Part shown: positions 27,490 to 46,350 of the stretch, piece after piece
Position numbering within the stretch: the first letter of the stretch is position 1
Layout of the letters: the number at the start of each line of letters is the position of its first letter
Assembly: GCA_951406725.2 (NCBI GenBank)
Contig: OX597833.1
Location: 51,832,001-51,896,000, forward strand
Direction: 5' to 3'
Length of the DNA stretch: 64,000 bases
DNA from: Octopus vulgaris
Lineage: Eukaryota
Notes under the pieces: generated by a model
Told to the model about the DNA's origin: nothing
What the model saw: the letters and a program-made list of their open reading frames with translations, nothing else
Database searches by the model: none
Program-made: the position numbers and the translations under genes

Positions 27490-27787
27490 CATATACACAT
27501 ATAAAACATATGTGTGTATGTATAGGTTGTGATAGAGCCAAGAACTTCCCAATTTAACCGGGCAACTATTTTGTGTTCAACGTACTGTAATAGACATTCT
27601 CTAAAACATTTCAACGTTATCGATGTAAAATAGTTCGCAAGTGGGAATCGAAACCGAACCGAAGAATTTGTATTTTTTTAATATTTCTACTTTATTAAAC
27701 TCATCTCTATGTGGGGTACATACATTTTTGGCATATATATATTGCTAGTAGTAGCCCTGTTAAGATTTTTACCTCACTGAACTCATC

Positions 27788-27814
27788 ACGCATGCGTAAT
27801 CCTCGTCCATTTTG
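27788..27814 (+). promoter_or_regulatory. Candidate promoter: NRF1-like palindrome plus YY1-like motif
   Basis: ACGCATGCGT (27788-27797) and CGTCCATTTTG (27804-27814) in unique sequence ~400 bp upstream of the 862-aa ORF. Confidence 0.4.
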
Positions 27815-27898
27815 ATATACTCTCCTTTTTCACTCTCTCGCGTTTTACAGTTTCTACCTGTATATGTACGATATATACGCAGCATTTCATTTACAGAG

Positions 27899-28187
27899 GT
27901 AAGAATGCATTACCTATCGAAATCTTCACGTATTTCATCCAATTTAAACCATCATTCAACGGTTGAATTATTAATGCATTTAGCAACATAGCGTGTCGTC
28001 CGTGTATTTTTCGATAAACGTCTCTACAACGTTTTTGTCGCGATAAAACCTTACCTGTGTCCAAAGCGAGAACACCAGAAATTATTTATTACCATTTATT
28101 TTTAAACAAGCTTAGCTTACTTAACTCGGTTACTGGAATATTAGAAGACCAATCCGTCACCAAAATCATTTGTGAGAATCTTTTCAG
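27899..28187 (+). other. Predicted intron upstream of the 862-aa ORF
   Basis: Donor AG|GTAAGA at 27899; acceptor TCTTTTCAG| at 28187, immediately before AAA-ATG. Confidence 0.65.
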
Positions 28188-28190
28188 AAA

Positions 28191-30779
28191 ATGAGTTCTT
28201 CAGAAGATGAAAATCATACTGAATTCCATTCGAAGGATAATGAAGACATTTCTAGACCTTCTACATCTAAAATCGGGGACACTTGCCCACTTGGCTTAAC
28301 TGCAGATCCTAATCCAGTGGCTGTCTCATCTCAGGACTCAAAAGTTAACGAAAAGCATCACTCACCATGTAGACGTTCCACAGTTAGTCCCAAAAAGGAA
28401 AAATGCGTCGAGCCAACCGATCTTTCACACAGTACAAACAGGCATGGAGCTGATGACGATACCCTTAATACTCCAGAGAAGCTTATCAAAACTGAATCGG
28501 TGCATGAACCAAGTACATCAAGACTACTACCTGAAGCTAATATACCAGGGAGCAGCATTCCACGTTCCAGTATGTCTAAAAGCCTACAACCCTACGGAGT
28601 TCATAATTTCTCAAAAAGCGAAGATTTTCGTCTCCAGCTCGGGCCAGAAATTGAAGAGACACTAAGATCAGGAAAAATAAGGCTGCCATCTCTAACAGAG
28701 TGCGGAACTTCACCTTCCAAAATGGTCATGATAGAAACACGCCACAAAGTGCCAGAGAGCAACCAGGCTTCTAGCACACGAGAAAGTGAGAAAAGAGAAG
28801 GCGAAAGCGCGCCGGTACCCAGGAAACGTTTAAATGCTCCTGTACGCAGAATGCGTGGAAGACGGTCAGTACACGGAACGCAGGGAAGACGGCCTGTGCG
28901 CGGCATACGTAGAAGACGACCTGTGCGCGGAATGCGTGGAAGCGCGCCAGTGCGCGGAATGCGTGGAAGCGCGCCAGTGCGCGGAATGCGAGGAAGCGCT
29001 CCAGCGCGCGGAATGCGTGGAAGCGCGCCAGTGCGCGGAATGCGTGGAAGCGCGCCAGTGCGGGGAATGCGTGGAAGCGCGCCAGTGCGCGGAATGCGTG
29101 GAAGCGCGCCGGTGCGCGGAATGCGTGGAAGCGCGCCGGTGCGCGGAATGCGTGGGAGCGCTCCAGTGCGCGGAATGCGTGGGAGCGCTCCAGTGCGCGG
29201 AATGCGTGGAAGCGCTCCAGCGCGCGGATTGCGTGGAAATTCGCCAGTGCGCGGGAAAAGTAAAATCTCACGAGTGAAGAAAAATGTTAGAATCGTGGAA
29301 ATGAATGTAGGTACTGGATGCACGCGAGCTAGAGGGAGACGTTGCAGCCCACCACAGAATAGAAGTGGGTGCTCGCCAGAGAGTAGGAGAAGGGATAGCT
29401 CCCCTGTGAACCTTCAGTTCGATGACATGTTATATTTATCTCAGACTTCCAGCACATTGGCGAGGCGATATCATCCAAGAATACCTTTGAATGCACGATC
29501 TTACGGCTCAACATTGAACGAACAAAATTATGATGCATCAATGAGCAGCCACACACGAAGTGCGTCGATGAACAGATTGAACGATACAATGCTAATGGAC
29601 AGTCAATACTTAAGAGATTTAAACAGATATCACGATAGGGTGATAGAAGAACTATATTTTTTCATCGAGTTACTTGAAAGGTATTCTATATCGGCAGAAA
29701 TAGAACGGATCCAAAGGAGATCTGAAGGTACACAAACTCAGATGAGATCTGTTGGTGTTCAAACCGAGACCACGTCTGTAAGTGCATCGAATCAGACCAG
29801 AGATACATGTATACAGGTACAACCCAGACCTACAACTGGACAGGCATTCGATGTGTCGATAAATAGGTTTCATCACATGCAGCCAAGAAACAGATTACAC
29901 TGTCTCAGTCCAACAAGTTCTGTTCGTGGAGCACCACATACCTGTTCTGCAGCAAGCGAAAATAATCAGTCCAGATCCTGTTGGGCATGCGGCGAGTCGT
30001 ACATGATAGGAAGTATGCATTCTCAAAAATCACCAACAAGTGGACAGTCGGCCTGTTTGTCAATAAACAGGCCGTCTTGCAGTACGTCGACAAGCGAGTT
30101 GCATCATGACGACCCGATGTTAAGCACATACGACTACCGCCCGTTAGCAAGCGCATGGCACGGTGACTCGCTGGCAAATGATCATGTGCCCAGCACGTCG
30201 GTGAGGGAGGAGCTTCACAATACAAATAGAGAACAGGATTTACATCAGGCTGAACATGGAGAAACCTCTTACAGTGTACAACCTCAGGAACCTTCTAGTG
30301 ACAAAAGAGAATCAGCAGACGCGGAAGTTCCGGACTTGGAGTTGCCGGTCGTGGATTTGCCGGACTTGGAATTTCCAGCATTGGAAGTGCCGGTCGGGGA
30401 ATTGCCGGTCGTACAATTGCCGACCGTGCAATTGCCGTTCGTGGAATTGCCGGACTTGGAATTGCCGGACGAAGAATCGCCGAACTTGGAATTGTCGGAC
30501 GAGGAATCGTCGGACGTGGAATCGTCGGATGAGGACATGCCGGACTTGATATTGCCGAACGATGAATTGCCGGACTTGATATTGCCGAACGATGAATTGC
30601 CGGACTTGGAATCGTCGGACGAGGAAATACCGGACTTGGTATTGGTGGACGAAGAATCGTCGAACGAGGAAATGCCGGACTTGATATTGCCGGACGAGGA
30701 ATTGCCGGTCGTGGAATTGCTGGTCGAGGAATCGCCAGACGAGAGATCGTCGAGCGTAGAGTCGACAACTGGAAGATGA
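28191..30779 (+). CDS. Uncharacterized 862-aa intrinsically disordered protein with RG-rich repeat, TQT motifs and acidic repeat tail
   Basis: 2.6-kb uninterrupted ORF in repeat-free, higher-GC sequence; AAAATG start context; frame-preserving 27-bp and 15-bp tandem repeats; ATTAAA signals downstream; no transposon motifs recognised. Confidence 0.85.
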   Translation: MSSSEDENHTEFHSKDNEDISRPSTSKIGDTCPLGLTADPNPVAVSSQDSKVNEKHHSPCRRSTVSPKKEKCVEPTDLSHSTNRHGADDDTLNTPEKLIKTESVHEPSTSRLLPEANIPGSSIPRSSMSKSLQPYGVHNFSKSEDFRLQLGPEIEETLRSGKIRLPSLTECGTSPSKMVMIETRHKVPESNQASSTRESEKREGESAPVPRKRLNAPVRRMRGRRSVHGTQGRRPVRGIRRRRPVRGMRGSAPVRGMRGSAPVRGMRGSAPARGMRGSAPVRGMRGSAPVRGMRGSAPVRGMRGSAPVRGMRGSAPVRGMRGSAPVRGMRGSAPVRGMRGSAPARGLRGNSPVRGKSKISRVKKNVRIVEMNVGTGCTRARGRRCSPPQNRSGCSPESRRRDSSPVNLQFDDMLYLSQTSSTLARRYHPRIPLNARSYGSTLNEQNYDASMSSHTRSASMNRLNDTMLMDSQYLRDLNRYHDRVIEELYFFIELLERYSISAEIERIQRRSEGTQTQMRSVGVQTETTSVSASNQTRDTCIQVQPRPTTGQAFDVSINRFHHMQPRNRLHCLSPTSSVRGAPHTCSAASENNQSRSCWACGESYMIGSMHSQKSPTSGQSACLSINRPSCSTSTSELHHDDPMLSTYDYRPLASAWHGDSLANDHVPSTSVREELHNTNREQDLHQAEHGETSYSVQPQEPSSDKRESADAEVPDLELPVVDLPDLEFPALEVPVGELPVVQLPTVQLPFVELPDLELPDEESPNLELSDEESSDVESSDEDMPDLILPNDELPDLILPNDELPDLESSDEEIPDLVLVDEESSNEEMPDLILPDEELPVVELLVEESPDERSSSVESTTGR
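28812..29258 (+). repeat. Coding 27-bp minisatellite (PVRGMRGSA)n, ~16.5 units
   Basis: 4 degenerate units from 28812, 11 near-perfect units at 28920-29216, then a variant and a partial unit. Confidence 0.95.
30324..30770 (+). repeat. Coding 15-bp minisatellite (ELPDL / ESSDE)n, ~30 units
   Basis: Consensus GAATTGCCGGACTTG, alternating with GAATCGTCGGACGAG variants. Confidence 0.9.
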
Positions 30780-30839: not shown

Positions 30840-30871
30840 ATTAAATGTGTTTATTTATAATTTTTATTAAA
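30840..30871 (+). terminator. Candidate polyadenylation signals (ATTAAA x2)
   Basis: ATTAAA at 30840-30845 and 30866-30871 with GT/T-rich sequence downstream. Confidence 0.45.
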
Positions 30872-31244
30872 ACCCGCAAACTATTTACGCCATATTGACG
30901 AGTTGTTTTTATAAATAGCTCGTTGACACAAACTCAATTCTGAATATAGGAATCAAACAAGCATTCAAAAGTGACTGACAATATTAAAAGTTGTAAAATA
31001 GAGGCTGATAATTCTATTTCATCTCATAAATATACTTTTCCAACACAGTATTACAAATATATTCGAAAACAGATTTCACGATAACTATGGCAATACGTAT
31101 CGTTTTTACTCAAATGTTGTAAAGAACTGCAATAATAATCCTATTATTTCAGAGATAGTAAAAAAAAAAAAACAAAAATTAACCAATTTGAATGGTGTTT
31201 GATGCGACGAATATTTATTCATTACCTTTTAAGTTTATTATGTG

Positions 31245-44492: not shown

Positions 44493-44573
<81 letters not shown>

Positions 44574-44607
44574 TGATAATAATAATAATAATAATAATAA
44601 TGATAAT

Positions 44608-46350
44608 ACGAATCTCCAATTATACCACTCTAATGGAGTACTTGCCTCAGAAAATATAAACATCAACTGTGGAATTTTTCAAGGTGACTCACTTTCACCT
44701 TTAATATTATGCATAGCCCTAATACCCCTTACAAGTGAATTAAACAGAACAGGGTATGGGTATAAAATTGCCAATAAAAAAATAAGCCATCTATTTTATA
44801 TGGATGACTTAAAACTTTATGGTAAAGACAATAATGAACTTGAAGGCCTATTGCGCACCGTGAAAGCATTCAGCGATGACATCGGGATGGAGTTTGGACT
44901 TGAGAAGTGTGCCAAGGCCACTTTCCAGAAAGGGAAAGTGAAGACCACAAATTCAGTCGTGTTAGATGTTGACACAGTCATAAGAGAGCTTGAGCAAGAA
45001 CAGACATACAAATATTTAGGGATAAATGAAGGCTCTGGTATTCAGCATGCAAGCATGAAAGAGAAAATCAGGAAGGAATGTTATAGGAGAGTTCGTGCAG
45101 TCCTGAAATCTGAACTAAATGCACGTAACAAGGTGTTAGCTATAAATTCCTTAGCAGTTCCAGTTGTTACTTATAGCTACAATGTGTTGAACTGGAATAT
45201 GAGTGAAGTAAAGAATATAGATAGAAAAATACGCAAGCTGCTGAGTTGTAATAGGATGCACCACCCAAAGGCAGACGTAGATCGCCTTTACCTTCCCAGA
45301 GCCCAAGGAGGTCGAGGCCTGATCCAATTTGAACTAGCTTACAAAACAACCACAATTGGACTGGCCAAATATCTCGAAATATCGAATGACTGGATGCTAA
45401 AGCTCGTGGAAAATCACGAGAGACGAAAGAAGCTTCATTCTATCATAAAGGAAAGCAAAAAATTTGCTATTGATCTCGTGCAGGATACCCAAACTGAACA
45501 ACCCGAGGGAAGTACGGCAACTATTGTTGCAAAGAAGGTGAAAATGATGGCAATGAAAAAAGCGCACGAGCAATTGGCTGATAGGTGGGAGGAGAAATCT
45601 CTGCACGGCAAATATGTGACCCGCAGCAAACAAGCTGATGTTGACCAGAAGCAAACCCATCAGTGGCTGCGGAGCTCAGGGCTAAAAGCAGAGAGCGAAG
45701 GTTTCATCCTGGCTGCTCAAGACCAAAGCCTATTAACCCGGAACTACCAGGCCAATGTGATGAAAAATGGAGCAGACCCAAAATGCCGATTCTGCAACGA
45801 CATGATTGAAACAGTGGACCACCTAATCTCTGGATGTAAAGTCTTAGCACCAGTGGAGTATAAATTAAGACATGACAGAGTTGGCCAATATCTCCACTGG
45901 CTAATAAGTCGGCATTACAATATCAAAACTGCCGACAAGTGGTATAATCACCACCCTGAGGCTGTAACTGAAGGAGAAAATGTAACCATTCTGTGGGACT
46001 TTCCAGTACATACAGACCGAACCATCAAGGCCAATAAACCAGATATTGTTGTGAAAGACCAAAACAATAAAGTTTGCTTATTGATCGACATGAGCATCCC
46101 CTGTGATCATAATATCTCAGCGAAAGAGTTTGACAAGCTCAGAAAATATAAAGACCTACTCATTGAAATTGAGAAAATGTGGCATCTCAAGGCGGTTACA
46201 ATACCAGTGATCGTAGGAGCACTAGGAATGATCAAGAAGGGAACCGAAAATTATATGAGAATGATCCCTGGCTTACCATCCCTGCAAGAAGTGCAAAAGA
46301 TTGTCTTAACTGGTACATCACACGTATTGAGAAGAGCGTTGTCGATGTGA
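44608..46350 (+). CDS. Partial reverse transcriptase / CCHC zinc knuckle / restriction-like endonuclease (N-terminus missing)
   Basis: Frame is open from 44608: GIFQGDSLSP, FYMDD (the track's Met at 44800 is the M of YMDD), YKYLG, GGRGL, CRFC..ETVDHLISGC, RHD, KPDIVV..LIDMSIP..K..KY; no stops or frameshifts. Confidence 0.92.
   Translation, partial: TNLQLYHSNGVLASENININCGIFQGDSLSPLILCIALIPLTSELNRTGYGYKIANKKISHLFYMDDLKLYGKDNNELEGLLRTVKAFSDDIGMEFGLEKCAKATFQKGKVKTTNSVVLDVDTVIRELEQEQTYKYLGINEGSGIQHASMKEKIRKECYRRVRAVLKSELNARNKVLAINSLAVPVVTYSYNVLNWNMSEVKNIDRKIRKLLSCNRMHHPKADVDRLYLPRAQGGRGLIQFELAYKTTTIGLAKYLEISNDWMLKLVENHERRKKLHSIIKESKKFAIDLVQDTQTEQPEGSTATIVAKKVKMMAMKKAHEQLADRWEEKSLHGKYVTRSKQADVDQKQTHQWLRSSGLKAESEGFILAAQDQSLLTRNYQANVMKNGADPKCRFCNDMIETVDHLISGCKVLAPVEYKLRHDRVGQYLHWLISRHYNIKTADKWYNHHPEAVTEGENVTILWDFPVHTDRTIKANKPDIVVKDQNNKVCLLIDMSIPCDHNISAKEFDKLRKYKDLLIEIEKMWHLKAVTIPVIVGALGMIKKGTENYMRMIPGLPSLQEVQKIVLTGTSHVLRRALSM

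Follow-up and report, generated by a model that had tools for sequence, protein, structure and literature searches.

A single-copy, octopus-restricted and predicted disordered protein with candidate LC8-type sites and two coding minisatellites in Octopus vulgaris

What might a protein do that is predicted to be disordered almost from end to end, occurs once in its genome and carries two large repeat arrays within its coding sequence? The question is raised by a stretch of 64,000 nucleotides from Octopus vulgaris (assembly GCA_951406725.2, contig OX597833.1, positions 51,832,001 to 51,896,000) – here called the window, in whose own coordinates features are given – which sits on the sequence numbered C20 of the 2.8-Gb genome. 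At 28191–30779 (+), the window contains a single uninterrupted, intronless frame of 862 amino acids (95 kDa), the longest stop-to-stop open reading frame (ORF) within it (867 codons; the runner-up is a retrotransposon ORF of 592 amino acids). The original prediction, made from the letters alone, had already picked out this frame and read it as a lineage-specific condensate or chromatin scaffold. The protein is octopus-restricted, single copy and predicted to be disordered; as to its role, we favour – tentatively, and with somewhat less than even confidence – an LC8-dimerised nuclear adaptor tethered to nucleosomes and later extended by an arginine–glycine (RG) array and an acidic tail resembling SUMO-interacting motifs (SIMs) and PxVxL motifs.

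Disorder is the first thing to establish. AlphaFold, supplied with a two-sequence alignment, assigned a confidence score (pLDDT) below 50 to 823 of the 862 residues and placed helices only at residues 152–159 and 471–512. A Pfam scan of the protein gave three matches, all sub-threshold, with no SANTA and no cupin domain among them, and searches of PDB sequences, PDB folds, viral folds (BFVD) and viral contigs were empty, the fold searches having been run with a low-confidence fragment model at E ≤ 0.001. The expectation of a disordered chain with no recognisable folded domain was thus borne out, as was that of a lineage-restricted host gene, there being no transposon or viral match and one distant homologue. 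Within the O. vulgaris genome, the N-terminal part, the middle part, the RG array and the acidic array were each found once, and no paralogue of the ORF turned up there or in the 200 kb of flanking sequence.

That the frame is likely to be a working protein gene is suggested by the collinearity of its distant homologue, by substitutions among close relatives that introduce no stop, and by mostly silent variation among the RG units. The homologue, P0003 (508 amino acids, from a Logan contig and known as protein only), is the sole distant one found; it is 57–58% identical and collinear from the same Met over ~500 amino acids. Homologue searches returned only P0003 among proteins of 474–1509 amino acids and none among those of 30–473, and P0003 as query returned only itself and the public entry for the O. 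vulgaris locus, CAI9737817.1. In a search free of length limits, 148 of the best 150 matches were repeat-only, as judged from the coordinates of their best stretch and from reading four of the sequences, with ~1,100 weaker matches beyond these. Among relatives – represented by contigs from five sequencing runs under four organism labels – we counted 33 distinct coding substitutions (two of them in one codon and two in short repeat contigs that are perhaps misplaced, with the RG array outside the comparison), of which 13 were synonymous and none created a stop; all three falling in amino acids 440–626 were synonymous. Far from being disrupted in close relatives, the ORF differs there in length only by an in-frame 15-bp unit.

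What, then, has been kept since the divergence from P0003? The longest runs identical between the two proteins are HHMQPRNRLHCL (residues 561–572), RSVGVQTETTS (519–529) and ETLRSGKIRLP (156–166), of 12, 11 and 11 amino acids, respectively; three identical runs of at least 11 amino acids arise in 0.007 of shuffles. The charge blocks are not part of this conserved core, since in P0003 the RG expansion is missing, no more than one or two degenerate units being present, and so is the acidic tail. Conserved function would therefore not rest on segregated charge, which had been offered as the functional basis; to judge from these two proteins, the blocks look like later additions and the best-kept parts are short motifs. 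For the proposal of a chromatin scaffold, the charge-block argument is weakened, but two other leads have emerged, in that the TQT motifs already spotted belong to an LC8-type cluster and that an LRSGK motif is conserved. P0003 ends a few residues past its CWxCG, with a VCILKN that corresponds to the +1 frame of the window; an ancestral end, a truncation and an assembly error are indistinguishable from the protein alone.

The first of these leads is a cluster of candidate LC8/DYNLL-type sites at 29718–29822 (+), recognised by consensus: RSEGTQTQ (site 1, residues 510–517), RSVGVQTE (site 2, 519–526) and RDTCIQVQ (site 4, 537–544), together with a weak NQT at 534–536. The LC8 consensus is given as [D/S]-K-x-[T/V/I]-Q-[T/V]-[D/E] (PMC3078936, PMC6607443), with position rules that call for a [T/V/I]-Q-[T/V] anchor, a polar residue at −4, a large one at −3, D/E/P at +2 and no internal Pro (PMC6607443). 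Site 2 satisfies all the position rules and fits the consensus except at −3, where its Val is allowed; sites 1 and 4 depart from the rules only at +2, and the NQT site breaks them at −1. A 30-amino-acid span with three strict anchors was seen in 0.0001 of 20,000 shuffles; among 148 low-complexity controls, one had three [DS]xx-anchors within such a span and none had the complete site-2 pattern. P0003 retains sites 2 and 4, the former as an invariant RSVGVQTE and the latter as DxxIQV.

The candidate sites lie in a predicted disordered segment that directly adjoins the longer predicted helix (residues 471–512; 29601–29726 (+)), for which the fragment model reaches a pLDDT of ~92 and which we regard as a candidate weak dimerisation element; such a neighbouring element is described as typical of LC8 clients (PMC3078936). 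A short hydrophobic helix had been expected here. A helix is indeed predicted, but it is ~40–60 residues long and not membrane-spanning: the best 19-residue hydropathy (1.13) lies elsewhere in the chain, which has no transmembrane or signal segment and no N-terminal hydrophobic stretch. A canonical, intronless LC8 is present in the O. vulgaris genome (L002, 1489–1758), and the motif match makes it likely that these short sites let LC8 clamp the protein into pairs. The genome also yielded two further dynein-light-chain matches, an intronless divergent one (L003, 1444–1758) and a partial third (L004).

The second lead is ETLRSGKIRLP (28656–28688 (+)), in which LRSGK occupies residues 158–162; all 11 residues are identical in P0003, and LRSG[KR] occurs in none of the 148 controls and in 0.002 of shuffles. 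What the octopus protein shares with KSHV LANA (residues 1–23) and RNF169 is an LRSG(K/R) or LRS core within disorder; an LRS-to-AAA mutant of the LANA LRSGR sequence does not bind, and RNF169 has an LRS anchor (PMC11445581, PMC5426901). Unlike that of LANA, the octopus motif is internal rather than N-terminal, has no MR before LRS and follows a predicted short helix. Its LRSGKI also equals the core of the truncated CENPC-k motif of grass delta-KNL2, RRLRSGKV/I, with Lys for the key Arg and no downstream Trp (PMC9210943). Identity with KNL2/M18BP1 or CENP-C was nonetheless rejected: the octopus protein has neither SANTA nor cupin domain, Lys replaces the key Arg, and neither it nor P0003 has the Trp on which centromere targeting depends. 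Whole-genome searches for the CENP-C cupin (PF11699) and SANTA (PF09133) were blank, which introns or divergence may explain. As a candidate nucleosome acidic-patch anchor of the LANA/delta-KNL2 type, LRSGK may hold the protein on chromatin.

The longest invariant run of all opens a His/Cys segment at 29871–29996 (+), which extends from HHMQPRNRLHCL, with 12 of 12 residues identical in P0003, to CWACGE (597–602) and is a possible metal or partner site. The Cys- and His-containing segment noticed at the outset is present and its CWxCG is conserved, but CWACGE is without the His and Cys that the CCHC knuckle pattern requires, and no fold was predicted for the segment in the fragment model.

The charge blocks themselves are as pronounced as had been claimed, and both coding minisatellites are real. 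A 27-bp unit repeated 15.2 times at 28845–29254 (+), unique to the locus, encodes (RGMRGSAPV)n, and a 15-bp unit repeated 28.4 times at 30318–30743 (+) encodes acidic pentads of the form P-x-(L/V/E)-E-L. The basic block (amino acids 196–405) has 57 K/R against 7 D/E and an isoelectric point (pI) of 12.0, with Arg making up 27% of its residues, and the acidic tail (706–862) has 52 D/E against 3 K/R and a pI of 4.05; charge segregation amounts to 0.034, compared with 0.003 ± 0.001 in 200 shuffles, a ~12-fold difference. The whole protein contains 29 RG dipeptides. The degenerate first units of the 27-bp array form basic clusters (PRKR, RRMRGRR and RRRRP; 28815–28925 (+)) that we take to resemble nuclear localisation signals. 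Across the 11 core units of the RG array, five of six distinct variant codons are synonymous (P ~0.008).

Among the tail pentads are five PxVxL motifs and a number of SIM-like cores flanked by acidic residues and CK2-type serines, all generated from one repeat unit (pattern definitions from PMC12751080 and PMC7465937). For this tail, composition may matter more than any single motif, and its use as a SIM/PxVxL partner-binding module would be the weakest part of our model. All four runs aligned to the tail have one extra in-frame 15-bp unit relative to the window, near 30345. The haplotype or assembly of the window is one pentad short at that point.

How might these parts act together? In the adaptor model, the basic clusters would drive nuclear import. 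LC8 dimers would bind sites 2 and 4, separated by 18 residues, and possibly site 1 as well; two chains would thereby be paired and the adjoining helix stabilised – a step that we propose because the motifs match and are conserved. The paired LRSGK anchors might then, though here the case is weaker, engage the H2A–H2B acidic patch with avidity. Growth of two minisatellites in the O. vulgaris group would have contributed an RG array able to bind RNA or DNA, and also an acidic tail; SIM-like or PxVxL pentads in this tail could bring in SUMOylated or HP1-type partners. That the arrays exist and that P0003 lacks them is observed; the partners of the arrays and the order of events we infer.

Several points weigh against this model. 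Function is read at the level of motifs throughout, and these were chosen after the sequence had been viewed, so the P values are optimistic. LC8 clients occupy many compartments, and LC8 sites do not imply a nuclear location. Site 1 has become SQT in P0003 and the NQT site is lost there, and the heptad moment of the long helix is not significant (P = 0.14). LRSGK is five letters long, was spotted after the fact and ends the predicted helix at 152–159, so that it could be an ordinary helix cap. The excess of synonymous substitutions among relatives is weak (P = 0.017–0.14, depending on transition bias; omega ~0.4–0.65), and deeper comparison relies on a single distant homologue, known as protein sequence only. 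When the 12th RG unit is included, only five of nine variant codons are synonymous (P ~0.08). Most variation in the acidic array alters the amino acid; the array stays acidic but holds on to no single motif, and P0003 manages without it.

Among known systems, the closest working analogue is Panoramix, of the Drosophila SFiNX/PICTS complex, a disordered protein that is dimerised by LC8 (Cut up) through two TQT/V sites and silences chromatin (PMC7919418), its dimer forming condensates stimulated by nucleic acids (PMC7919418, PMC7861614). Disorder and QT-type LC8 sites – candidates in our case, read from the sequence – are what the two have in common. The octopus protein is not a family member: no sequence homology and no Nxf2-binding region were found in it, it has its own RG array and LRSGK, and it has no link to Nxf2–Nxt1 or Piwi. 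One could imagine, as an improbable elaboration, a convergent Panoramix-like silencing adaptor in octopuses that unites in a single chain an older LC8-dimerised, nucleosome-anchored core and the two minisatellites, and so links nascent RNA to the SUMO/HP1 heterochromatin machinery. From the minisatellites would then come an RG array that binds RNA and can be tuned in length, as well as a tandem SIM/PxVxL tail that was apparently gained by a frame change past CWxCG.

The multivalent LC8 clients ASCIZ, 53BP1, KANK1 and GKAP are conserved families with folded domains, unlike the octopod-restricted protein described here, which has none. They resemble it in their tandem QT/QV motifs, which lie in disorder beside a helix. 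The architecture is undescribed, but its kind is known, namely that of a lineage-restricted, disordered LC8 client, and this familiarity sets a moderate ceiling on its interest. In the literature consulted, we found no mention of either accession or of the two peptide motifs, and the publications listed on octopus orphan genes, cephalopod LC8 and RG/Tudor proteins yielded nothing concerning the 862-amino-acid gene. If the adaptor model is true, the locus could be tested as a chromatin adaptor specific to one lineage, in a genome rich in transposons, and its motifs allow precise mutations; it would also show clearly how coding minisatellites can equip an older disordered protein with complete motif modules.

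The rival that holds up best, although we think it unlikely, places the same LC8 client in the cytoplasm, where it would scaffold RNA granules such as germ granules, or associate with microtubules or the centrosome, its RG array binding RNA or microtubules. The LC8 motif evidence applies to it equally, C. elegans DLC-1/LC8 binds core P-granule proteins (PMC9282019), ciliary, centrosomal and KANK1 clients of LC8 exist, and the abundance of RG dipeptides would suit it. Each of the two homologues also has one SxIP motif, but at different positions and at a frequency expected by chance (1.3 per 862 amino acids in controls), while both the basic clusters and LRSGK, which is invariant, suggest a nuclear location.

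Somewhat less probable still is a fast-evolving octopod protein, perhaps reproductive or structural, in which the motifs match by coincidence, or one that belongs to an older family but has diverged too far for homology to be seen. An identity of just 57% to the sole homologue, weak constraint among close relatives, the lack of a fold and the looseness of short motifs would all fit. Against this, the motifs fall where the invariant runs are longest, and the clustering of the LC8 anchors is far tighter than chance would give; as for a reproductive role, the Arg content of the basic block is far below that of protamines.

A quite different doubt concerns the gene model. The public entry CAI9737817.1 (P0004; UniRef A0AA36BQ40, a 'hypothetical predicted protein') is a 392-amino-acid product of the same locus, with the same start and stop, that is 100% identical where present but lacks amino acids 226–695 and with them the RG array, the helix, the LC8-type sites and the His/Cys segment. 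It assumes a canonical, in-frame GT-AG intron at 28865–30274 (+), and were this spliced form – the N-terminus joined to the acidic tail – the main product, the long frame would be a retained intron. We consider this very doubtful. The supposed intron is open throughout and contains the segment best conserved as protein (70–80% identity, amino acids 511–570), and on its acceptor side (30274) contigs from three runs (X1, X5 and X8) run across without a joint, the donor side not being covered. For these reasons the public model is probably wrong, removing the best-conserved half of the protein, and its intron is likely to reflect an annotation error or a minor form; correction is needed whatever the function. 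Transcription itself seems likely, because small runs (16–88 million letters, against a 2.8-Gb genome) carry the locus: among 24 sequencing runs examined, ten contain part of it and eight half or more (five studies), none being recorded as RNA, with X1 and X2 guessed to be RNA and the runs in which the share of the locus was 0.00 (14) or 0.17 (2) having no bearing on tissue.

Slightly less probable again is that there is no working protein gene, the frame being kept open by stop-poor repeats or belonging to a non-coding transcript. Both arrays are indeed open in other frames too, and P0003 departs from the shared frame after CWxCG, but ~570 non-repeat codons are open and P0003 stays open over ~500 amino acids at 42% amino-acid divergence. 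A domesticated retroelement or viral gene is the most improbable of all: the frame is intronless, in a transposon-rich, gene-poor region, with a knuckle-like CWxCG and a TLRSGK of a kind known from long-terminal-repeat gag-pol, but it is single copy, matches nothing in Pfam, viral contigs, PDB or BFVD, has no predicted capsid fold and only an incomplete knuckle, and has no terminal repeats around it among the 20 direct families and 25 inverted pairs listed.

Upstream of the frame, 27787–28190 (+) probably serves as a 5′ leader; it has four short upstream ORFs and is spanned without a joint by contigs from runs X2 and X5. A possible GT-AG leader intron at 27899–28187 has a strong-looking GTAAGA donor and a TTTTCAG acceptor; its removal would drop two of the four upstream ATGs, and both contigs are unspliced there. 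The contigs begin at 27808 (X2) and 27787 (X5), beside CCATTTT and GCATGCG, which we take to be initiator/YY1-like and NRF1-like, respectively. Neither position was counted as a transcription start site, the X5 end being loose and the DNA run without coverage there. Nor was the loose end of X5 accepted as an upstream exon: we read it as a chimera, as it matches an exon 4.2 Mb away and stops one base short of the donor. That exon is the second of two (L005, 1100–1535; C20, ~56.106 Mb) in what is presumably a glycoside-hydrolase-family-1-like gene. A TYA match in the leader (E 0.008, below the cut-off and one among 150 ORFs) was taken as chance.

Downstream, two ATTAAA hexamers at 30840–30871 (+), 60–90 nt 3′ of the stop, are candidate polyadenylation signals. 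An A-rich run at 31160–31175, ~380 nt past the stop, might be what remains of a poly(A) tail after retroposition, but no parent gene was found genome-wide. The ratio of observed to expected CpG at the locus was uninformative. Z-linkage was considered and dropped: the O. vulgaris Z is given as chromosome 16 (10.1101/2024.12.09.627507), the chromosome 20 Z belongs to O. sinensis (PMC10925132), and the contigs of the genome are only numbered.

The claim that this is the sole convincing host gene in the 64 kb has met with no contradiction, 150 of the 252 non-repeat ORFs in the window having given one sub-threshold Pfam match. In the flanks (100 kb on each side), scanning 60 of 469 ORFs gave five Pfam matches, all to transposons. 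The region looks gene-poor, although small host-gene exons could escape an ORF scan. Within the window, the 592-codon frame at 44572–46350 (+) is that of a non-LTR retrotransposon, which we assume to be of R2/NeSL type: it has a partial reverse transcriptase (Pfam E 3.5e-12), a zf-RVT-like segment and a C-terminal restriction-like endonuclease region, starts in an AAT microsatellite and is apparently 5′-truncated. About 70 kb beyond the window end lies a 552-codon reverse transcriptase frame with a weak RVT_1 match (L109, 923–2578 (−)), presumably Penelope-like, and broken copies of a mariner/Mos1-type transposase flank the region (L101, 5206–6033 (+); L110, 9027–9672 (−)).

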